Virus record (IMG/VR): IMGVR_UViG_3300037459_000161
Coordinates: 1 to 59,721 of that record
DNA length: 59,721 nucleotides
Reading direction: 5' to 3' (one strand)
Origin: a virus
Taxonomy: Duplodnaviria; Caudoviricetes
A program made the translations under genes and the position numbers. Below the pieces are notes generated by a model. It was given only the letters and a program-made list of their open reading frames with translations, searched no databases and had not been told where the DNA came from. Positions 15,721 to 33,193 of the stretch are shown here, one piece after another (position 1 is the stretch's first letter; every line of letters starts with the position of its first letter).

Positions 15721-15732
15721 TTTATGAAAACT

Positions 15733-15805
15733 CAGGAGTTAGGATAACTGGAAAATCCATTGGGTTGTGGCCCCGAAAATAAAGGTTCAAGACCTTTACT
15801 CCTGA
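15733..15805 (+). tRNA. tRNA with GUG (His) anticodon and non-canonical acceptor end; no encoded CCA
   Basis: Acceptor CAGGAGT/ACTCCTG; D arm GGAT-AACTGGAAA-ATCC; anticodon arm TTGGG-TTGTGGC-CCCGA; T arm AAAGG-TTCAAGA-CCTTT; U8, A14, G18G19 and A15-U48 present. Confidence 0.85.
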
Positions 15806-15825
15806 TTTACATACAAAGGTAATCA

Positions 15826-26270: not shown

Positions 26271-26462
26271 ATGATAGCAAGATGTTCGAAATGCAAACAA
26301 ATTTCAAGTAGTTTTGAACCTTGTACTTTGTGCGGTGCGTTAATGAAATCAATTGATGAAGATTTTGATGATGATGAAACTATTCCAGTTAATTATTCAA
26401 GAGATAGACAATTTGATTTAACATCTTTATTTCCATTTTTGCCACTTAGAACACAAAAATGA
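26271..26462 (+). CDS. Small zinc-ribbon protein
   Basis: CSKC...CTLC; GAAGGGG RBS. Confidence 0.6.
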   Translation: MIARCSKCKQISSSFEPCTLCGALMKSIDEDFDDDETIPVNYSRDRQFDLTSLFPFLPLRTQK

Positions 26463-27580
26463 GAATAGCTGTAGACGCTACATACCTGTATAAAATGGGT
26501 TCTAATGACAAACTTCAACAATGGACTATTTCAACTGAAGGTGATTTAATCAAAATTGAGTGGGGAGAATTTCAAGGACGCAAACAATACAAAGAAGAAA
26601 TTGTAGAGTTTGGTCTTGCTGGAAGATCTCATGAGGAGCAATTACTTTTAAGAGTACAATCAAGAGTTAATCGCAAACTTGATATTGGTTATGTTTTCAA
26701 TATGAAAGAAGCGCAAAGTAAACTAAAAACAAATCGGCTAGGTTTAAAAATGCCGATGCTCGCAAAAATATGGAGTAAAGTAAAAGAAATAGATTATGAA
26801 AATGCTGTAATTCAACCAAAATTAGATGGACACAGATGTTTGATTTATTTCGACGGTGAAGATTACATAGCTTATTCAAGAAATGGAAAACAAATCACTT
26901 CTATTACAAATATTTTAGCTGACGTTAGTAAATGTGGTATGCAACCTGGAACTACACTTGATGGTGAATTATACCATCATGGAACTGCATTACAAACAAT
27001 TGGTTCTTGGGTTAGGAGAGAACAACCAAACACTGATAAACTTTGTTACACAATTTACGATATGATTCCTGCAATTGATAGTGTTGTTCATGATTGTGAT
27101 TTTAAAACTAGACTTGAAATGCTGCGATCATTGCGTTTAAACAATAATCTTGGGTTACTTGGTTGCATAGAGAATATAACAGAGAATCAAATACCTGAAT
27201 TTTTAAAAAGTGTAAGATCAATGAAATACGAAGGTTTGATAATTCGCCAAGCTGGTTTTGGTTATCAAGATGGAAAGCGGAATAATGCTTTAATCAAAGT
27301 AAAACAATTTCTAGATGACGAATTTGAAGTGATAGATATTCAAGCTTCTAAAGATAGTTTTTGTATTTTACATTGTAGAACACATAATATACTTAGCACT
27401 ATATATGAAACTGTAACTAAAGTCACAGCACCAGGGACATTCGATGAAAAAGACTTTGTATTGGCTAATCGAAAAGATTATATAGGTAGATACGTTACAG
27501 TTGAATTCGCAGATTGGACATTGGAAGGAAAACTTTTCCATCCGATAGCAAAATGCTGGCGAGAAAAAAATGAAGAATAA
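26459..27580 (+). CDS. ATP-dependent DNA ligase
   Basis: PMLA, QPKLDGHRC (motif I), LDGELY, YD, YEGLIIR, LIKVK, C-terminal OB fold. Confidence 0.92.
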   Translation: MRIAVDATYLYKMGSNDKLQQWTISTEGDLIKIEWGEFQGRKQYKEEIVEFGLAGRSHEEQLLLRVQSRVNRKLDIGYVFNMKEAQSKLKTNRLGLKMPMLAKIWSKVKEIDYENAVIQPKLDGHRCLIYFDGEDYIAYSRNGKQITSITNILADVSKCGMQPGTTLDGELYHHGTALQTIGSWVRREQPNTDKLCYTIYDMIPAIDSVVHDCDFKTRLEMLRSLRLNNNLGLLGCIENITENQIPEFLKSVRSMKYEGLIIRQAGFGYQDGKRNNALIKVKQFLDDEFEVIDIQASKDSFCILHCRTHNILSTIYETVTKVTAPGTFDEKDFVLANRKDYIGRYVTVEFADWTLEGKLFHPIAKCWREKNEE

Positions 27581-28022
27581 TGGATTTTATTGCATTGCTT
27601 TAGATAATCCAAAAAGCGGAGAAAACGTTGGTGGTTCAATGCGTGCCGCTCAAATTTATGGTGCTTCATTAATTGTTTTAGGTGGTAAACGTCCAGAAAA
27701 ATTAATCAAACACCCAACAGATACAATGAAAGCGTTTAAACATATACCATCTGTTTTAGTTGAAGATATATTTGAAGCTTTACCTTTTGATTGCATTCCT
27801 GTCGCTGTAGATTTGATTAATGGTGCAATGCCACTACCAAATTATTGCCACCCAAAGAGAGCATTTTATATTTTTGGCGCTGAAGATGCAACATTAGGAA
27901 AACGGATTACTGATCGGTGTAGGGATATTGTCTTTATTCCAACGCGGAGTTGCATGAATTTAGCTGCCACAGTTAATGTAGTTCTTTATGACAGATTATC
28001 AAAATTAGGGGTTGCAATTTAA
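27570..28022 (+). CDS. Stand-alone SPOUT (SpoU/TrmH/TrmL-like) RNA 2'-O-methyltransferase
   Basis: LDNPKSGENVGGSMRAA, YIFGAED, IPT..CMNLAATVNVVLYDR. Confidence 0.9.
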   Translation: MKNNGFYCIALDNPKSGENVGGSMRAAQIYGASLIVLGGKRPEKLIKHPTDTMKAFKHIPSVLVEDIFEALPFDCIPVAVDLINGAMPLPNYCHPKRAFYIFGAEDATLGKRITDRCRDIVFIPTRSCMNLAATVNVVLYDRLSKLGVAI

Positions 28023-28039
28023 AATGAATCACCTATAAT
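28012..28039 (+). promoter_or_regulatory. Promoter for the RNA array and TROVE operon
   Basis: TTGCAA-N16-TATAAT; predicted start ~28046 coincides with the 5' end of unit 1. Confidence 0.7.
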
Positions 28040-28046
28040 CCTGATT

Positions 28047-28114
28047 GCTCGAATGGCGTATATAACGGTTACTTCATTATAGATAAGATACTGTTATTGC
28101 TTGTTCCTTCGAGC
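28047..28114 (+). ncRNA. Y-RNA-like unit 1
   Basis: GCTCGAA/TTCGAGC stem, TGGCGTA...TGTTCC core, ATAACGGT/ACTGTTAT stem, TACTTC. Confidence 0.75.
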
Positions 28115-28126
28115 GTTTGATTTGAT

Positions 28127-28223
28127 GTTACAATGGCGTAGAATACAGTTACTTCTTTACTGAAACAAAGATAGTCTACCGAAAGGGGACTAACAATTTC
28201 TGTATTCGTTTGTTCCTTGTAGC
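28127..28223 (+). ncRNA. Y-RNA-like unit 2
   Basis: GTTACAA/TTGTAGC stem, same core, GAATACAG/CTGTATTC stem; insert with a CTGAAA loop and a GAAA-tetraloop hairpin. Confidence 0.75.
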
Positions 28224-28230
28224 TTGATTT

Positions 28231-28346
28231 TGTGATGGCGTAGTTAACAGTTACTTCCTCTGCTAAAGGAGAAACCTAGTTAAGAATTTGGCTATCAAGT
28301 CAAATCTAAACCAAGGACTTTGTACTGTAAACGTTTGTTCCTCACA
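28231..28346 (+). ncRNA. Y-RNA-like unit 3
   Basis: TGTGA/TCACA stem, same core, GTTAACAGT/ACTGTAAAC stem; insert TTCCT-CTGCTAA-AGGAG plus a long hairpin. Confidence 0.75.
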
Positions 28347-28358
28347 CTTGATTTACTT

Positions 28359-28439
28359 TGTAGTGGCGTAGATAGCAGATACTTCAGTTCGATCCTGTTA
28401 AGCCTTGGATGGCAAGCCTGTTATCGTATGTTCCCTACA
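28359..28439 (+). ncRNA. Y-RNA-like unit 4 (YrlA-like T-loop)
   Basis: TGTAG/CTACA stem, same core, GATAGCAG/CTGTTATC stem; insert CAG-TTCGATC-CTG and GCC-TTGGAT-GGC. Confidence 0.75.
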
Positions 28440-28461
28440 CTCACAGAAGGGGTTTTCTAAA

Positions 28462-29817
28462 ATGCGTACTAATTTACTTCCTGAATCAATGCGAACACAT
28501 GAAGGTGCAAAAGCTTACACACTAACAACAGAACTTGAATTACGTCGTTCTGTACTTTCATGTTTTCTGTGGGAAGATTCTTTTTACGAAAATGGAGTTT
28601 CTATTGCAGAGCGAATTTCAACGCTTTGTGATTCAGTTGAACCTGAAAAAATTGCAAAAATTGCAATTGAAGCAAGAGAAGTAAATCATCTTCGTCATGC
28701 GCCTCTATGGTTGATTTGCGGTTTAGCAAGAAATCATAGTGGTGATTCACTTGTTTCTGATACTGTAGAACGAGTTATTCAACGAGTTGATGAAATTCCT
28801 GAATTGCTATCTCTGTATTCTCTTAGTGTTGTAGGTGTTAAAACAAAAAATGGTAGAACAAAGAAACTTGGAAAACTTTCCAATGGTATCAAAAATGGAA
28901 TTGCGCGAGCATTTACAAAGTTCACACCCTATCAACTTGCAAAGTATAACCGCAAAGGTGCAATCACTTTGAAAGATGCTTTGTTTGTTTCTCACGCTAA
29001 ACCTATTACGGAAGCACAAGGTAAAGCCTGGAAAGATTTGATTAATGGTGAACTTGCTACGCCCGACACTTGGGAAGTTGCTTTGTCTGGTGGAGCGGAT
29101 AAGAAAGAAACATTTATTCGTTTGATTGCAGAAAAGAAATTGGGAGCACTTGCTTTGCTTCGTAATTTGCGGAATATGGATGAATCTGGTGTACCTATTG
29201 ACGTAATAAAGGGAGCATTGGCGGAAGCTAACGTTTCTAGAGTTTTGCCTTTTCGGTTTATTGCAGCGGCGCAATTTGTTCCCCAATTGGAAGAAGATCT
29301 AGAAAAGTGTATGTTGAGAAGCATTCAAGAACAACCTAAAATTCCTGGTTCAACCGCAATGCTTATTGACCATTCTGGTTCTATGCCTGGGTATCAAATT
29401 TCTGAAAAATCCAAACTTGATCGTTTCGACGCTGCTACTGCGCTTGCAATGATTGCACGAGAAACTTTTGAAAATATTCGTACTTTTGCTTTTTCTGAAC
29501 AAACTGTAGAAGTTCCTTCTCGTCATGGTTTTGCTTTGCGAGATGCAATCGGAAATTGTATGGGTTTTGGTATGACTAGGCTTGGAGCAGCAATTGAGCA
29601 TGTTGGTAAAGTTTATAATTACGATAGAATTATTGTTATTACCGACGAGCAAAGTCACGATCGGGTTGGGCCTCCCAAGGCTGGTTCAAATGGATATATG
29701 ATTAACGTTGCAACCTATAAGAATGGTGTAGGTTATGGTCCCTGGACACATATTGACGGGTGGTCTGAATCTGTACTTAAATTCATTGCCGAACTTGAAA
29801 ACTTCGGCAATTCATGA
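28462..29817 (+). CDS. rsr: Ro60/Rsr-like TROVE + vWA domain RNA-binding protein (451 aa; start revised)
   Basis: THEGAKA, SCFLWEDSFYENG, LRHAPL, YQLAKYNR, PDTWE, ALLRNLRN, VLPFRF, MIDAS DHSGSM, VITDEQ, IDGWSE; AGAAGGGG RBS before ATG 28462. Confidence 0.92.
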   Translation: MRTNLLPESMRTHEGAKAYTLTTELELRRSVLSCFLWEDSFYENGVSIAERISTLCDSVEPEKIAKIAIEAREVNHLRHAPLWLICGLARNHSGDSLVSDTVERVIQRVDEIPELLSLYSLSVVGVKTKNGRTKKLGKLSNGIKNGIARAFTKFTPYQLAKYNRKGAITLKDALFVSHAKPITEAQGKAWKDLINGELATPDTWEVALSGGADKKETFIRLIAEKKLGALALLRNLRNMDESGVPIDVIKGALAEANVSRVLPFRFIAAAQFVPQLEEDLEKCMLRSIQEQPKIPGSTAMLIDHSGSMPGYQISEKSKLDRFDAATALAMIARETFENIRTFAFSEQTVEVPSRHGFALRDAIGNCMGFGMTRLGAAIEHVGKVYNYDRIIVITDEQSHDRVGPPKAGSNGYMINVATYKNGVGYGPWTHIDGWSESVLKFIAELENFGNS

Positions 29818-30350
29818 TCGTCTTTGATACCGAAACAACAGGTTTAATCAAACCTGAAGATTGTTCGATTCACTTGCAACCACATATTACAGAATTTTCT
29901 GGGTTGCAAGTGGATGACAATTTTTTCATACAAAATCAAGTTGATACTTTCGTAAAACCTCCAATACCAATTCCAGATTTTTGCACTCGTTTAAATGGCA
30001 TAAGCGACGAAACTGTTGCTGATGCTCCAGATTTTTTAGATATTTATCCACAATTAGTTGCTTTGTTTTTAGGCGAAACAACTGTAGTAGGACATAATGT
30101 AACTTTTGATTTAGGTGTTCTGTATTTCGAGTTAAAAAGACACGATTTAGAATTTAAATTTCCTTGGCCTCAAAAATGGATTTGCACCGTCGAGAAATCT
30201 ATGCCGATAGAAGGCCATAGATTGACACTGAGCAGACTTTATCAAATTGCCACTGGCAATACCCACGAAGGCGCCCATCGTGCAAAGCAAGACGTTAGAG
30301 CAACGCTAACATGCTATCAATTTCTTCTTAGAAAAGGTTTGATTACTTGA
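29814..30350 (+). CDS. DEDDh 3'-5' exonuclease (DnaQ/epsilon-like)
   Basis: FDTETTGL, GHNVTFD, AHRAKQDV. Confidence 0.92.
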   Translation: MIVFDTETTGLIKPEDCSIHLQPHITEFSGLQVDDNFFIQNQVDTFVKPPIPIPDFCTRLNGISDETVADAPDFLDIYPQLVALFLGETTVVGHNVTFDLGVLYFELKRHDLEFKFPWPQKWICTVEKSMPIEGHRLTLSRLYQIATGNTHEGAHRAKQDVRATLTCYQFLLRKGLIT

Positions 30351-33193
30351 TTCATCTAGCTCTTAGAACTGAATTTAGTTTTAAGAGTTGTTATGGATTT
30401 CTTGATAAACTAACAGAGTTTGCCGACGAAAATTCTGCTTTAGGAATTGCCGATAATAACAGTACGTTCGGCCATATTAAACATCATAAGAATTGCAGAG
30501 AAAAAGGAATCAAACCTATTCTCGGCGTTCGATTAATGGTATGCAATGAATTCATTGAGAAAAAGAAAACTTGGGGACCAATTTACATTTTTATTGCTAG
30601 AAATAGCATCGGGCTTTCTGAGTTGTATGGTTTGGTTACTAAAGCTTATAGCCAATTTTATTACCACCCACGAATCTGTCAAGAGGATCTTAAAAAAGTT
30701 TCGTCTAATATAATTGTTATTGCAAACACATTCAACACATCAAATAGAGTTGATTTTGTTGGTATAGACCAAACAACACCAGATGTTATTGCAACCTGGG
30801 AAGGAATTAGAAAAGTTGCAATCTGTTTAAACTGGTATCCAAAATTCGACGATAGAGGCGTTTACGAATTATTTGTTGGCGACAAATTAATGGAAGCGCA
30901 AACTTACCCACAATTCATCATGAATGAAAGACAATGGATTCATAATTGTGGTGTTGGTAATAAAACATTAATCGCAATTTCTAACACTGAATTAATTGCT
31001 AGTATGTGTGAAAATTATGATTTGCCACAAGCAACGTTAATCAAATACACTGGCAAAGTAAACAGTCTAAGAGAGCTTTGCTACATCGGCGCGCGTGAAA
31101 GGGGAATGAGTTTAAACGGTGCTTATAAAGGAAGATTAGATAGAGAATTAAGCATAATCAACTCGAAAGGGTTTGCAGATTATTTTCTAGTTGTTTCTCA
31201 AATGGTTTCAGAAGCAAAAAAGAAAATGCTAGTTGGTCCGTCTCGCGGATCTTCAGCAGGCTCTTTAGTTTGTTATCTAATCGGAATCACAGAAGTAGAT
31301 CCAATCAAGTTTGATTTATTGTTTGAACGTTTTGTTGATTTAAATCGTTCTGATTTACCAGATATCGACGTAGATTTTCCAGACACAAAAAGAAAGAAAG
31401 TCATTGACGAACTTATAAAACAATATGGTGAAGATCATGTTTCACACATTGCAACTGTATCAACAAAGAAACCTAGATCAGCAATTGCAGATTTTGCTTC
31501 TGGTTTAGGAATTGCACAGTATGAAACAGAAGAAGTTAAAGATGCTGTTTTGACTGGCTTTGCTGGTGATATTCGAGAAAACAGACGGATAGAAGATACT
31601 TTTGAAACGACAATTGTAGGACGAGAGTTTTTAGAAAAGTATCCTGAAATGGAACTTGTTACACGCATTGAAGGCCATTCAAGTCACGCAGGGGTACACG
31701 CAGCGGGAGTAATTGTGTGTAATGAACCTGTATCTACCTATGGTTCAATTAATGCGCGTGTAGGCGCGTTACAGATGGATCATAAAGACACAGCAAATGT
31801 TGGTCTGTTAAAAATAGATTGCTTAGGATTAAAAACTCTTTCTATTCTTGAAGAAGTTGCAACACAAATCAAGATGCCATTTAAAGATTTTTATTCGTTA
31901 CCTCTCAACGATAAAAAAACATTAGACATTTTCAATGCAATGCGTCTATCTGGAATTTTCCAATTTCAAGGACCAGCATTACAATTTATTACTAGAAAAA
32001 TGGGAGTTAGATCTTTTGATGATATTTGTGCAATTACTGCTTTAGGTCGTCCTGGTCCAATGAAAAGTGGTGGCACAAATTTATTTATTGACAGAGTAAC
32101 TGGAGCAAAAACAGTTGAATATTTGTCAGATCATCCTGCTATTAAAAAATATACTGAAGCAACATTTGGTGTAATTGTTTATCAAGAGCAATTAATGCAA
32201 ATTGCGCGCGAATACGCAGGAATGAGTTGGGAAAAAGTTAGTGAACTTAGACGTGCAATTAGTAAATCAAAAGGCGAAGAATTTCTTGCAGTTTTCAAAG
32301 AAGAATTTATCGACGGTGCAGTAAATAATGGTGCTGAATTACAAGAAGCAAATCATATTTGGGAAAACATAGTTACTTTTGGTGCATACGGATTTAACAA
32401 AAGTCATGCTTATGGATATGGTTTGATTTCTTATTGGACAGCCTATTGTAAAGCGCATTATCCAATGGAATTTGCAGTTGCAAACTTAAATCATGCTACC
32501 AAGGAGCAATCACTTAGACTTTTAAGAGATATGGTCAAGTTTGACAATATCGAATATACTGCTTTTGATCCAGATGAATCACTTGAAAATTGGTCTGTAG
32601 TTGATGGTAAACTTTTAGGTGGTTTATGCAGCTTGAAAGGCATTGCACACAAAAAAGCAAAAGACATTTTAGATTGTCGAGCAGGAAGAAAGAAATATAC
32701 AACTTCGATATTTAAAACTCTAGCTAATCCTGAAAGTGTTTTTCAAATTCTATTTCCTTGTTATCATTGGTGGGGTTGTTTTTTTAATGAACCAAATTCA
32801 TTTGGTTTAGAAAATGCTCCTGTAGAAATTCAAGATGTTAATGGATTAGGTCAATTTTTATTCATTGGAAAAATGACAGAACGAACTTTAAGAGATATGA
32901 ATGATGTTCAATCTATTGCTAAACGTGGTGGACAAATTGTATCAGAAAATAGTTTATTCCTAAGAATGAAAGTTGAAGATGATACTGATATAATCCCAAT
33001 CATAATTAACAGATTCAAATTCGAGAATATAGGTAGAGAAATTCTTGAAACAGGCAAAGTTGGGCATGATTGGTATTTGATTAAAGGTGAAATTATAAGT
33101 GATTGGAGATGTGTTTACGTCGAGGAAATTCTTAACTTGAATGTATGGGCAAAACCAGAAGAGTTTGGTCCAGATTACGAACCCCGAGCATAG
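30347..33193 (+). CDS. dnaE: DNA polymerase III alpha subunit (family C)
   Basis: PHP-like N-terminus, RGSSAGSLV, FERF, PDIDVDF, HAAGV, KIDCLGL, VYQEQ, YGFNKSHA. Confidence 0.95.
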   Translation: MIHLALRTEFSFKSCYGFLDKLTEFADENSALGIADNNSTFGHIKHHKNCREKGIKPILGVRLMVCNEFIEKKKTWGPIYIFIARNSIGLSELYGLVTKAYSQFYYHPRICQEDLKKVSSNIIVIANTFNTSNRVDFVGIDQTTPDVIATWEGIRKVAICLNWYPKFDDRGVYELFVGDKLMEAQTYPQFIMNERQWIHNCGVGNKTLIAISNTELIASMCENYDLPQATLIKYTGKVNSLRELCYIGARERGMSLNGAYKGRLDRELSIINSKGFADYFLVVSQMVSEAKKKMLVGPSRGSSAGSLVCYLIGITEVDPIKFDLLFERFVDLNRSDLPDIDVDFPDTKRKKVIDELIKQYGEDHVSHIATVSTKKPRSAIADFASGLGIAQYETEEVKDAVLTGFAGDIRENRRIEDTFETTIVGREFLEKYPEMELVTRIEGHSSHAGVHAAGVIVCNEPVSTYGSINARVGALQMDHKDTANVGLLKIDCLGLKTLSILEEVATQIKMPFKDFYSLPLNDKKTLDIFNAMRLSGIFQFQGPALQFITRKMGVRSFDDICAITALGRPGPMKSGGTNLFIDRVTGAKTVEYLSDHPAIKKYTEATFGVIVYQEQLMQIAREYAGMSWEKVSELRRAISKSKGEEFLAVFKEEFIDGAVNNGAELQEANHIWENIVTFGAYGFNKSHAYGYGLISYWTAYCKAHYPMEFAVANLNHATKEQSLRLLRDMVKFDNIEYTAFDPDESLENWSVVDGKLLGGLCSLKGIAHKKAKDILDCRAGRKKYTTSIFKTLANPESVFQILFPCYHWWGCFFNEPNSFGLENAPVEIQDVNGLGQFLFIGKMTERTLRDMNDVQSIAKRGGQIVSENSLFLRMKVEDDTDIIPIIINRFKFENIGREILETGKVGHDWYLIKGEIISDWRCVYVEEILNLNVWAKPEEFGPDYEPRA

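Follow-up and report, generated by a model that had tools for sequence, protein, structure and literature searches.

Tandem putative Y-RNA units beside a phage Ro60 gene carry a stem-loop resembling a tRNA anticodon arm

Four tandem units lie upstream of a phage Ro60/Rsr gene

The window analyzed in this study is a 59,721-nucleotide stretch of DNA from a virus of the Caudoviricetes (IMG/VR record IMGVR_UViG_3300037459_000161). On its plus strand, positions 28048-28439 are occupied by four tandem Y-RNA units located directly 5′ of a phage Ro60/Rsr gene (Table 1). The rsr gene has the same orientation and starts, at 28462, 23 nt past the end of the array, which agrees with the rule that YrlA genes lie within about 4 kb of a Ro60/Rsr gene of the same strand. 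The closest solved structure to the Rsr protein of the window is the Ro60 of Thermus phage phiLo (9L5Y/9KOP, E 1.7e-22), and its relatives show 38-53% identity. A megablast search of positions 27000-30000 against GenBank phages gave no match. A consensus scan of the region 27900-28600 returned six promoter-like sites, the best of which is the site 5′ of unit 1. We consider the array to consist of four YrlA-type Y-RNA genes, which are probably transcribed from this promoter and run on into Ro60/Rsr. Transcription of the units, their processing and their binding by Ro60 would be expected from this arrangement, and the TTGATTT motifs that follow units 1, 2, and 3 are candidate processing sites. 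Among sequencing runs listed as containing the stretch, there was one DNA run, from marine sediment and possibly the origin of the window sequence, and no RNA run.

Table 1. Features of the array and its surroundings, with positions in the window.
Feature	Position	Strand	Basis
Sigma-70-like promoter TTGCAA-16-TATAAT	28012..28039	+	10/12 consensus positions; consensus match only
Y-RNA unit 1 (minimal)	28048..28113	+	Repeats, fold; model R1 41.3 bits, E 7.8e-8
Unit 1 hairpin CUU(C)A-UUAUAGA-UAAG, weak anticodon-arm-like version with bulge	28072..28087	+	Sequence reading; outside 5/7/5
Spacer motif TTGATTT after unit 1	28117..28123	+	Repeats
Y-RNA unit 2	28127..28223	+	R1 50.3 bits, E 6.4e-10; fold -24.1 kcal/mol, z -2.54
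Unit 2 hairpin UCUUU-ACUGAAAC-AAAGA, degenerate, 8-nt loop	28154..28171	+	Sequence, fold; outside 5/7/5
Unit 2 second hairpin, GAAA tetraloop	28172..28192	+	Fold
Spacer motif TTGATTT after unit 2	28224..28230	+	Repeats
Y-RNA unit 3	28231..28346	+	R1 42.5 bits, E 4.1e-8
Unit 3 hairpin UUCCU-CUGCUAA-AGGAG, clean (C32 U33 GCU A37 A38)	28255..28271	+	Sequence; within 5/7/5
Spacer motif TTGATTT after unit 3	28348..28354	+	Repeats
Y-RNA unit 4, minimal, tRNA-elbow-like, without anticodon-arm-like hairpin	28359..28439	+	R1 36.1 bits, E 1.3e-6; fold z -2.09
Unit 4 T-arm-like hairpin CUUCAG-UUCGAUC-CUG(UU)AAG, right after AUAC	28382..28402	+	Sequence reading
Unit 4 hairpin CUUG-GAUGG-CAAG	28404..28416	+	Sequence reading
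Ro60/Rsr gene, 451 aa, Shine-Dalgarno-like GAAGGGG 5′ of start	28462..29817	+	Pfam TROVE E 3.3e-13, vWA_Ro60

The four units differ in what they carry. Unit 1 comprises a basal stem (CUCGAA/UUCGAG), UGGCGUA, a helix, UUAC-UUC, a weak bulged hairpin, and the 3′ motif UUGUUCC. In unit 2, the Ro-binding module is joined by two hairpins, one with a loop of 8 nt and the other capped by GAAA, and the combination of the first hairpin with a tetraloop hairpin also occurs in units of other phages (e.g., L064, L048, L093, and L080). In unit 3, the Ro-binding module is followed by an anticodon-arm-like hairpin and a long irregular hairpin. The first hairpin of unit 4 appears to be T-arm-like, since its loop fits the T-loop pattern UUCRANN, and the second may be D-loop-like, having GG in its loop; Rfam gave no match at the former. 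When the Rfam YrlA and tRNA models were run over the window at E up to 10, no match was obtained in the array, and a tRNA-His gene was found outside it. An Rfam match to HSR-omega across units 3 and 4 was rejected as spurious (25.7 bits against the 80 needed).

The array belongs to a YrlA-type subfamily

A covariance model, R1, was built from 35 full-length units, all of other phages. Searched over the whole window with E up to 10, R1 matched the four units (E 6.4e-10 to 1.3e-6) and nothing else. In the R1 alignment, the CUGCUAA of unit 3 falls on the family consensus cUguuAA. The subfamily is described by the pattern UGGCGUA-N4-RCNG-WUACUUC ... CNGY-N4-GY-WUGUUCC, and its 5′ motif was found in 89 viral and at least 120 bacterial stretches. 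A homologue of Rsr is present at 84 of 101 viral and 47 of 120 bacterial loci. The full-length relatives scored 29.6-49.8 bits with the Rfam YrlA model (RF02553), under its gathering threshold of 69 bits.

The units were also compared with published features of YrlA RNAs. The 5′ motif is GGCGUAG in units 2-4 and GGCGUAU in unit 1, with U as the fifth base where the published GNCGAAN0-1G has A, and it varies among relatives (GGCGUAG, GGCGAAG, and GGUGAAG). The YUAY element appears as UUAC in units 1-3 and, with R for Y at the first base, as AUAC in unit 4, which we counted as a match. T and D stem-loops with an acceptor-like stem were not found together in the window units: units 1-3 are without a T or D arm, and unit 4 has a T-loop-like UUCGAUC and a GG loop but lacks an acceptor-like stem, although all three elements are present in many relatives in the same arrays. 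The 40 full-length units extracted were reduced to 35 by leaving out five of seemingly atypical layout (L021, L042, L054, the second unit of L036, and the first of L096). The 35 were aligned with MAFFT and folded with RNAalifold, which yielded the Ro stem, the acceptor-like stem, and the T and D arms, with compensatory changes. A BLAST search of the remaining parts of units 2 and 3 against 221 loci returned nothing beyond the shared motifs except for one match, in which the 5′ part of unit 3 including its hairpin aligned with a full-length L036 unit (86% over 37 nt).

Each unit is built, in order, of a basal stem, a Ro60-binding-type UGGCGUA(G/U) opposite UUGUUCC, a covarying helix of 8 bp, and WUAC-UUC. 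The hairpins discussed below start in the UUC of WUAC-UUC and are the window copies of a module found throughout the subfamily.

The flagged hairpins occupy equivalent positions, and that of unit 3 has an anticodon-like loop

A sequence-only reading had flagged the hairpins of units 2 and 3 as anticodon stem-loop mimics, and both sequences are exactly as it described. In DNA letters, positions 28154-28171 read TCTTT-ACTGAAAC-AAAGA, with five pairs and CUGAAA inside the 8-nt loop, and positions 28255-28271 read TTCCT-CTGCTAA-AGGAG, with five pairs (one U.G) and a 7-nt loop. Both begin within the conserved WTACTTC (28149-28155 and 28251-28257), so that they hold equivalent positions in their units, again as proposed. 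Hairpins were scored as 5/7/5 when a loop of 7 nt was closed by a stem of 5 bp in which at least 4/5 positions pair, and unit 3 alone among the four units of the window has such a hairpin. Of the two flagged hairpins, only that of unit 3 is a clean copy; that of unit 2 is a rare, degenerate form, as 8-nt loops account for 7 of the 150 best hairpins in the family and have no common sequence. The weakness that had been ascribed to the loop of unit 1 was borne out, its stem being bulged. Units 1-3 have no T arm after the hairpin, whereas their full-length relatives have one.

Short AU-rich hairpins with U at the second loop position might arise easily at the base composition of the window, which raises the question of coincidence. 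The folding energies taken alone are marginal (unit 2, z -0.76; unit 3, z -1.02), 44 of 200 and 27 of 200 shuffles, respectively, fold as well or better, and RNAfold prefers a different register in unit 3 (CUCU/GGAG with a 6-nt loop); the 8-nt loop of unit 2 and the bulged stem of unit 1 point the same way. However, the hairpins sit at a homologous position in all units, and the loop CUGCUAA of unit 3 recurs in seven distinct viral units, including the canonical YrlA units of L023, L029, L036, L015, L046, and L098. The flagged hairpins are more than chance because their homologues show both the pairing and the loop signature, as detailed below, with an enrichment over controls that was replicated. 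A chance origin is highly improbable overall. It is contradicted for unit 3, and in units 1 and 2 the resemblance to an anticodon loop may be accidental.

The loop signature is enriched in two collections of homologous units

In the viral units, the best 5/7/5 register was fully paired in 51 of 155 (33%), versus 5.5% of shuffled tails. Since 35% of shuffles reach at least 4/5 pairs, sets defined as "4/5 or better" include false hairpins. The signature YU-NNN-RA was found in 18/40 loops with 5/5 pairs and 34/87 with at least 4/5 pairs in the viral units, and in 14/26 and 36/65, respectively, in a bacterial replicate. For comparison, it occurs in 377 of 15,667 control genomic 5/7/5 hairpins (2.4%) and in 113 of 210 real tRNAs from the same loci (54%). 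The anticodon-loop signature is thus 16- to 23-fold commoner in family loops than in control hairpins, and the prediction that homologous loops would be enriched for Y-U-NNN-R-A, the triplets varying, held in both of the collections, which are independent of each other. These counts are not independent because the units are homologous, and after single-linkage clustering at 70% identity the enrichment falls to 18-25% (signature in the majority in 9/36 clusters, p 1.4e-7; 5/28 singletons).

The hairpin is not universal, being missing in this register at 4/5 pairs or better from about 40% of family units (63/150). RNAalifold did not predict it from the MAFFT alignment, in which the stem is set in two registers one column apart. 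The hairpin also occurs in canonical tRNA-like YrlA units of other phages and of bacteria, where it lies between the Ro-binding stem and the T arm. With this location, two elements of the sequence-only reading are not supported, namely that the hairpins are payloads peculiar to units 2 and 3, and that the tRNA mimicry of YrlA RNAs is confined to the D, T, and acceptor arms and leaves out an anticodon loop, a premise that fails for this subfamily.

In full-length units, the hairpin and its linker are colinear with a tRNA

The family-wide stem-loop after WUAC-UUC looks like a tRNA anticodon arm. As judged from sequence, the module would have a 5-bp stem and a 7-nt loop, with a frame of C/U32, U33, R37, and A38 around three little-constrained positions. 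The anticodon arm of tRNA (RF00005, positions 27-43) shares this stem length, loop length, and frame (Y32, U33, R37, and A38); with the full-length subfamily units, it also shares the variable triplet and the 4-5-nt variable loop followed by the T arm. In 34 of 48 viral units and 39 of 47 bacterial ones, the T stem begins 4-5 nt after the hairpin, AGGTC being the commonest linker. When the Rfam tRNA model was aligned with units of L017 (29.5 bits) and L023 (30.2 bits; gathering score 29), the hairpin was placed as the anticodon arm, AGGUC as the V loop, and the T arm as the T arm. Moreover, ARAGORN called 20 Y-unit 5′ halves tRNAs, 17 of which use the stem-loop as the anticodon arm. Loop signature, pairing, linker, Rfam tRNA model, and ARAGORN all favor the proposed anticodon-arm look-alike. 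The hairpin is unlike tRNA in that WUAC and the Ro-binding stem, not a D stem, lie on its 5′ side, and its 5′ stem strand is nearly invariant. The likeness is one of sequence and denotes a structural mimic, with no decoding, modification, or aminoacylation implied. Because ARAGORN takes these halves for tRNA genes, some phage "tRNAs" beside Ro60 genes may be Y RNAs.

On this basis, full-length units would present the module, then a variable-loop-like linker of 4-5 nt (AGGUC, UGGUC, or AGAC), and then the T arm, so as to mimic a whole tRNA. The anticodon arm and V loop, the T arm, the closed acceptor stem, and the D arm would all be represented, and the Ro-binding stem would join on between the D arm and the anticodon arm. 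The window units would be reduced versions, in which the module is clean in unit 3, degenerate in unit 2, weak in unit 1, and lacking in unit 4, which would instead retain a T-loop/D-loop-like pair. We regard it as likely that the array encodes Y RNAs and that the flagged hairpin is a family module that is both a homologue within the subfamily and a mimic of the tRNA anticodon arm.

A different reading is that the hairpin is a plain variable-arm hairpin, serving as a structural spacer of the tRNA-like domain as in the drawing of Chen et al. (2014; PMC4201824), in which case the loop would be a relic or a generally stable heptaloop that nothing reads. Its topology, between the stem after the D arm and the T arm, is that of the variable arm of a class II tRNA; the Rfam YrlA consensus treats the hairpin as an insertion, and Salmonella YrlA, in the available account, does without it (Wang 2018). 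Reverse complements of the loop 4- to 6-mers within the unit were not enriched relative to loop-swapped controls (largest excess 55 vs. 44.5 +/- 4.8), as would be expected of a loop without a pairing partner elsewhere in the unit. On the other side, conservation of the loop frame across phyla equals that of the rest of the RNA, with drift at positions 34-36, the loop is kept in short units without any other tRNA-like part (13 of 39 viral units without a T arm have the signature), and the 4-5-nt linker of the AGGUC type suits an anticodon arm plus V loop and does not suit a variable arm. A mere spacer is unlikely in our judgment.

The loop frame is constrained, and the triplet positions change faster

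Among 164 pairs of units at least 75% identical, positions 34-36 showed 0.39 differences per site, and the loop frame, like the stem and the remainder, 0.21, so that changes in the triplet are about two times as frequent as in the frame. This twofold rate is what is expected from lack of constraint, and it does not demonstrate diversifying selection. The triplets are biased, with G34 in 72 and U36 in 75 of 152 units; UUU occurs once and CUU six times. UUU is the anticodon of tRNA-Lys, the target of PrrC, RloC, and PARIS. The 5′ stem strand, (C)UUC, is nearly invariant across the family, which argues against mimicry of many different tRNAs.

The module would be displayed at the effector-binding end of the Y RNA to a tRNA-binding partner, and two kinds of partner were considered. 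In the first case, Ro60-stabilized anticodon stem-loops would act as decoys or competitive inhibitors that soak up or block PrrC, RloC, colicin-like enzymes, VapC, or PARIS AriB during infection, and an array would offer several loops at once. The match to the loop frame, as frequent as in real tRNAs, and the faster change of the triplet are consistent with such a role, as is the variety of triplets within arrays (GCU in unit 3 and, among the degenerate units, GAA in unit 2 and AUA in unit 1; likewise in other arrays). The possibility that a YrlA tRNA-like domain competitively inhibits an anticodon nuclease was raised for Salmonella YrlA in the available text of Hughes et al. (2020; PMC7790460), and the system is present in phage genomes too. 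However, real tRNAs vary at positions 27-31, where the Y-RNA strand hardly does; the triplets tend toward GNU, with the scarcity of UUU and CUU just noted; the module is common in bacterial chromosomal units, where phage counter-defense does not directly apply; and lack of constraint suffices to explain the rate at 34-36. We hold a decoy role to be very doubtful.

In the second case, the loop would be a substrate or bait for anticodon-loop modification enzymes, being modified at position 37, or at 34 or 32, and the modification would stabilize the Y RNA or tether or titrate the enzyme. The 36/37 combinations co-vary as in tRNA (among 152 units, U36-A37 67, G36-G37 25, and A36-A37 20) and follow known determinants, those of t6A37 (U36-A37), m1G37 (G36-G37), and i6A37 (A36-A37-A38). 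A SPOUT (SpoU) methyltransferase gene ends 25 nt 5′ of the region of the promoter-like -35 box of the array, and two enzymes of tRNA modification, TruB and DusA, act on Salmonella YrlA (Chen et al., 2014; PMC4201824). Against this reading, SpoU is not a conserved neighbor, as a homologue was found at none of the 101 viral and none of the 120 bacterial loci. SpoU has a single PDB match and thereby its closest solved relative, the TARBP1 methyltransferase domain (2HA8, E 0.005), which we take to be of the Gm18 (D-loop) branch and not an anticodon-loop enzyme, and the NCBIfam matches to RlmB, TrmJ, and TrmL are far under their cut-offs. A role of SpoU as an anticodon-loop enzyme is thus unsupported by either result. 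In tblastn searches for the neighboring genes, the 101 viral loci gave SpoU 0, ligase 0, and DEDD exonuclease 1, and Rsr alone was found at the 120 bacterial loci; none of the three was retained as a conserved partner of the array, as they do not co-occur with it. A modification substrate seems to us quite unlikely.

Returning to the anticodon-arm mimic, its broadest functional form would be that Ro60-bound Y RNAs of the subfamily display an anticodon stem-loop with a conserved frame and a drifting triplet, and that phages carry arrays of full-length and reduced versions which, protected by Ro60, would serve as decoys for host anticodon nucleases, inhibit these competitively, or bait anticodon-loop enzymes. 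This remains speculative, and we think it quite improbable as a whole; if true, it would amount to counter-defense by an RNA mimic, not by spare tRNAs or repair enzymes.

The proposed mimicry has several implications for Y RNAs. Published YrlA work describes a mimic of the T, D, and acceptor arms without an anticodon loop, whereas the subfamily in phages and many bacterial phyla shows anticodon-arm features, and the stem-loop persists even in units stripped of all else that is tRNA-like. The list of possible partners of the tRNA-like end would widen to anticodon-loop nucleases, enzymes modifying positions 37, 34, and 32, and perhaps the ribosome, and the published idea of an anticodon-nuclease inhibitor becomes testable with defined short RNAs. 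The finding also agrees with the proposed origin of YrlA from a tRNA dimer, of which the anticodon arm of the first tRNA would still be visible.

Comparison with known Y RNAs

The statements on published systems below follow the available portions of the papers cited. Like the window units, the YrlA-type Y RNAs (RF02553; S. Typhimurium YrlA, M. smegmatis YrlA/YrlB; Chen et al., 2014, PMC4201824) are encoded next to Ro60/Rsr in the same orientation, and a locus has several of them. The Y RNAs of M. smegmatis lie 5′ of rsr, as in the window, and are made from a single precursor (PMC4201824). The window shares YUAY (here UUAC/AUAC) with YrlA RNAs and has a 5′ motif akin to GNCGAAN0-1G (here GGCGUAG, with U for the published A), and its full-length relatives share the T and D arms as well.

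The stem-loop that follows WUAC-UUC upstream of the T arm was named "V" by Chen et al. (2014; PMC4201824), whose model treats it as the variable arm and places the Ro stem in the position of the anticodon stem. What is new here is that the stem-loop called V has, as read from its sequence, the length, loop frame, and spacing of an anticodon arm, a feature absent from the passages of Chen 2014 and Wang 2018 at hand. In the literature passages searched, we found no account of the YrlA V stem-loop as an anticodon-arm mimic.

The Ro60 of Thermus phage phiLo (PMC12135203) resembles the window in that two Y-RNA-like genes (Yrl1/Yrl2) lie 5′ of the phage Ro60 gene. Yrl1/Yrl2 were identified by a CGAA motif and predicted folds, the word "anticodon" has no occurrence in the available text, and the authors proposed that Ro60 hijacks the host PNPase (PMC12135203).

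The crystal structure of S. Typhimurium YrlA (bioRxiv 10.1101/312249; PDB 6CU1) is like the subfamily in its tRNA-like L of T, D, and acceptor-like stems, in the conserved UA (in YUAY) at the junction, and in the Ro-binding stem that leaves the tRNA-like core. The solved RNA has no hairpin of the kind described here (Wang 2018; bioRxiv 312249): it "lacks the anticodon loop" and has the Ro stem at the position of the anticodon stem, whereas the subfamily has a separate hairpin just 5′ of the V loop.

Organization of the Y-RNA array

The record is a complete 59.7-kb IMG/VR phage with direct terminal repeats, in which four tandem repeats on the + strand lie between a SpoU-family methyltransferase gene and a Ro60/Rsr gene, the closest solved relative of the encoded Rsr being the Ro60 of Thermus phage phiLo (E 1.7e-22). 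The first 11 nt of the SpoU gene lie within the end of the ligase gene, and the SpoU gene itself ends just 5′ of the promoter-like site of the array. No terminator was found between unit 4 and rsr. TTGATTT lies directly 3′ of units 1, 2 and 3, and these spacers may mark processing sites. The TTGATTT of 28117-28123, combined with TAGAAT-like bases that fall within UGGCGUAGAAU, has a weak promoter score (28117-28144, 9/12); its use as a promoter seems unlikely, because transcription would begin inside the Ro-binding motif. The rsr gene and the Y RNAs are embedded in an apparent replication module, and the genes downstream of rsr (29814-33193) have overlapping stop and start codons. The layout is that of bacterial Y-RNA loci in the available text of Chen 2014 (PMC4201824), where YrlA and YrlB of M. 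smegmatis are encoded 5′ of rsr and derive from a single precursor, and where the 5′ motif is GNCGAAN0-1G with a YUAY motif after the stem.

Features of the window around the Y-RNA array
Feature	Position	Strand	Remarks
tRNA-His (GTG) gene, single	15732-15806	+	ARAGORN; Rfam tRNA 55.5 bits
ATP-dependent DNA ligase	26459-27580	+	upstream of array
SpoU/SPOUT methyltransferase gene	27570-28022	+	150 aa
Sigma-70-like site, TTGCAA-16-TATAAT	28012-28039	+	promoter-like, good match
Unit 1	28048-28113	+	repeat comparison
TTGATTT after unit 1	28117-28123		
Unit 2	28127-28223	+	repeat comparison
TTGATTT after unit 2	28224-28230		
Unit 3	28231-28346	+	repeat comparison
TTGATTT after unit 3	28348-28354		
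Unit 4	28359-28439	+	repeat comparison
Ro60/Rsr gene	28462-29817	+	Pfam TROVE and vWA_Ro60 domains
DnaQ-like DEDD exonuclease	29814-30350	+	downstream of rsr
DNA polymerase III alpha-type polymerase	30347-33193	+	downstream of exonuclease

The units share one plan: a short basal stem, UGGCGUA, an 8-bp helix (N4-RCNG paired with CNGY-N4), WUACUUC, a variable middle and a 3′ GY-WUGUUCC. The basal stems vary between units with complementarity kept (CUCGAA/UUCGAG, UUACAA/UUGUAG, UGUGA/UCACA and UGUAG/CUACA).

Family membership of the units

Used as a pattern, the 5′ motif matched 89 stretches of viral contigs and at least 120 stretches of bacterial and archaeal genome contigs from many phyla. An Rsr homologue was present in 84 of 101 viral loci and, among the matches listed, in 47 of 120 bacterial loci. 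The viral set comprised 156 distinct units in which the 5′ and 3′ motifs were both present, 44 5′-motif matches without the 3′ motif within 400 nt being left out, and their lengths fell into three main groups of ~50-60 nt, 70-110 nt and, a large one, 115-126 nt. Units of the long group are canonical YrlA and have a T arm (GGTTCGAATCC), an acceptor-like hairpin and a D arm (TAGCTCAGTTGGTAGAGC). The Rfam YrlA model scored them at 29.6-49.8 bits, under its gathering score of 69, and does not reach the window units. A covariance model trained on 35 long units, all from other phages, gave exactly four matches in the whole window, namely units 1-4 (E values 6.4e-10 to 1.3e-6), which places the window units, as judged from sequence, in the YrlA-type, Ro60-linked Y-RNA subfamily.

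The 5′ motif also occurred on contigs of MAGs labelled archaeal (loci L116, L133 and L170; Marsarchaeota, Bathyarchaeota and Saliniplasma), which may be archaeal loci, viruses or binning errors. In the MAFFT alignment of 35 full-length units, columns ~105-119 hold a single-stranded A-rich segment, often AAAAUYU, that bridges the D arm and the 3′ strand of the Ro-binding helix; it lies opposite the conserved WUAC, with which it may make up a conserved internal loop or junction. Several arrays adjoin phage tRNA gene clusters, as in L015, L023 and L063 (1104-1697, −): L015 had 20 ARAGORN calls, one itself a Y-unit 5′ half, several tRNAs were found in L023 and in L063, and L063 also had a group I intron match below threshold (34.7 bits versus 50).

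A hairpin module common to the family

The sequence-only reading had taken two hairpins, at 28154-28171 and 28255-28271, for anticodon stem-loop mimics carried as payloads by units 2 and 3. Both sequences are exact in the window. The version in unit 1 is weak, as that reading had stated; its stem is also bulged, and it fails the pairing criterion. Both hairpins start inside the conserved WUACUUC and therefore occupy an equivalent position. The same hairpin stands in the long canonical units immediately after WUAC, starting in UUC (UUCA-CUGCUAA-UGAA, UUCGA-CUGUUAA-UCGAG and UUCGC-CUUGUAA-GCGGG), so the payload framing was wrong: by position and sequence, the two hairpins represent a constant module that the Y-RNA family shares, rather than elements special to units 2 and 3. 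The module corresponds to stem-loop V, described as less conserved in the available text of Chen 2014 (PMC4201824), and the Rfam YrlA consensus treats it as an insertion.

The hairpin of unit 3, UUCCU-CUGCUAA-AGGAG, is a clean copy. Its loop recurs in seven distinct viral units, canonical ones among them, and is aligned by the covariance model to the family consensus cUguuAA; the remainder of unit 3 had no BLAST relatives among 221 loci. The 8-nt loop of unit 2 is a rare, degenerate form (8-nt loops in 7 of 150 best hairpins, with no common sequence), followed by a second hairpin with a GAAA tetraloop, a combination found in units of several other phages. Folded alone, the hairpins of units 2 and 3 are weak (z −0.76 and −1.02), and RNAfold favours a 4-bp/6-nt register in unit 3. 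Unit 4, a very small Y RNA, has neither the anticodon-arm-like hairpin nor an acceptor-like stem; a T-loop-like hairpin (UUCGAUC) directly follows AUAC, then a 4-bp hairpin with loop GAUGG (GG inside), and we infer that it might be a stripped-down elbow mimic. A T arm directly after WUACUUC was also seen in units of other phages (L043, L091 and L096).

Anticodon-arm features of the module

The best 5/7/5 register (five pairs closing seven loop bases) was fully paired in 51 of 155 units (33%), versus 5.5% when the sequence after WUACUUC was shuffled. With stem starts limited to three expected offsets and T-loop-like loops removed, the anticipated enrichment of homologous loops for YU-NNN-RA was borne out in counts that rest on homologous, non-independent sequences: 18/40 viral units with 5/5 pairs, 13/39 without a T arm and 34/87 with at least 4/5 pairs, the last set certainly including chance hairpins since 35% of shuffles reach 4 of 5. 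Among the matches listed, an independent bacterial set from 125 new distinct units gave 14/26 and, at the same chance-bearing threshold of at least 4/5 pairs, 36/65. The signature was present in 377/15,667 (2.4%) other perfect 5/7/5 hairpins and in 113/210 (54%) real tRNAs called by ARAGORN in the same loci. The enrichment survives single-linkage clustering at 70% identity but is smaller, the signature holding the majority in 9 of 36 clusters (p 1.4e-7 versus 2.4%) and occurring in 5 of 28 singleton units.

Where a T arm is present, the hairpin lies 4-5 nt from the T stem in 34 of 48 viral and, among the matches listed, 39 of 47 bacterial units. This is the length of the class I tRNA variable loop, of which the commonest linkers (AGGTC, TGGTC and AGAC) are also typical in sequence. 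The Rfam tRNA model matched the 5′ halves of units in L017 (29.5 bits) and L023 (30.2 bits; gathering score 29), aligning the hairpin as anticodon arm, AGGUC as variable loop and the T arm as T arm; four further overlaps with units scored 24.9-29.1 bits. ARAGORN called 20 Y-unit 5′ halves (L009, L013, L015 to L218) tRNA genes, assigning anticodons that include tgt, gtt, gct and gat and using the stem-loop as anticodon arm in 17 (exceptions L018, L128 and L130). These calls and the two units at the Rfam gathering score raise the possibility that ‘tRNA’ genes annotated beside Ro60 genes, in phages and bacteria alike, are Y RNAs.

Across 164 non-independent viral unit pairs at least 75% identical, differences per site were 0.39 at positions 34-36, 0.21 in the frame (32, 33, 37 and 38) and 0.21 in the stem and rest of the unit. 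The combinations at positions 36 and 37 follow those of tRNAs (U36-A37 67/152, G36-G37 25/152, A36-A37 20/152). RNAalifold did not recover the hairpin from the MAFFT alignment, owing to a register split of one column; the case therefore rests on register scans, shuffles and two tRNA detectors (Rfam tRNA and ARAGORN). At the sequence level, these results show that the unit hairpin is a homologue of a module with tRNA anticodon-arm features, in which a conserved loop frame surrounds a drifting triplet. The structural part of the earlier interpretation is supported and extends across viral and bacterial units.

As to function, action of the hairpins as decoys on anticodon nucleases has a precedent in the available text of Hughes et al. 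2020 (PMC7790460), where the YrlA tRNA-like domain is a possible competitive inhibitor of an anticodon nuclease and YrlA is not cleaved. The present data neither support nor exclude such action, which we consider quite unlikely: the module is also frequent in units of bacterial chromosomes, and a panel of decoys for different tRNAs is hard to square with a nearly invariant 5′ stem strand, triplets biased to G34 and U36, and the rarity of UUU (1/152). That the hairpin attracts modification enzymes would suit the 36-37 pattern of the loop and the fact that TruB and DusA modify YrlA (Chen 2014, PMC4201824, available text), but is likewise improbable, as the neighbouring SpoU gene has no conserved association with arrays, was not found beside them in other loci, and encodes a protein whose sole solved relative is the TARBP1 methyltransferase domain (E 0.005); NCBIfam matches to RlmB, TrmJ and TrmL were far under cut-offs. 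No complement to the loop was enriched within units, so the loop of the module is probably free.

Proposed working and comparison with known systems

The array would be co-transcribed with rsr from the upstream promoter-like site and then cut into separate RNAs, the UGGCGUA/UUGUUCC stem of each serving as a predicted Rsr-binding site and the distal end possibly being presented to a tRNA-binding partner. No RNA run containing the stretch was found. Full-length units may thus be read as a whole-tRNA mimic with the Ro-binding stem inserted between D arm and anticodon arm, a reading of order along the sequence that would allow either an anticodon-arm position or a variable-arm-like projection in three dimensions.

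A Ro60 gene with YrlA-type Y RNAs is a known kind of system. What appears to be new is the phage array of four reduced Y-RNA units and the family-wide anticodon-arm mimic, of which no prior description was found in the literature examined. In the available text of Wang 2018 (bioRxiv 312249), Salmonella YrlA is without the hairpin and has the Ro stem in the anticodon-stem position, in which the subfamily described here differs. The same text cites a tRNA-dimer model for the origin of YrlA, in which the first tRNA supplied the T arm. The order seen here, with anticodon arm, V loop and T arm collinear, fits this model, to which it would add that the anticodon arm of the first tRNA is still present.
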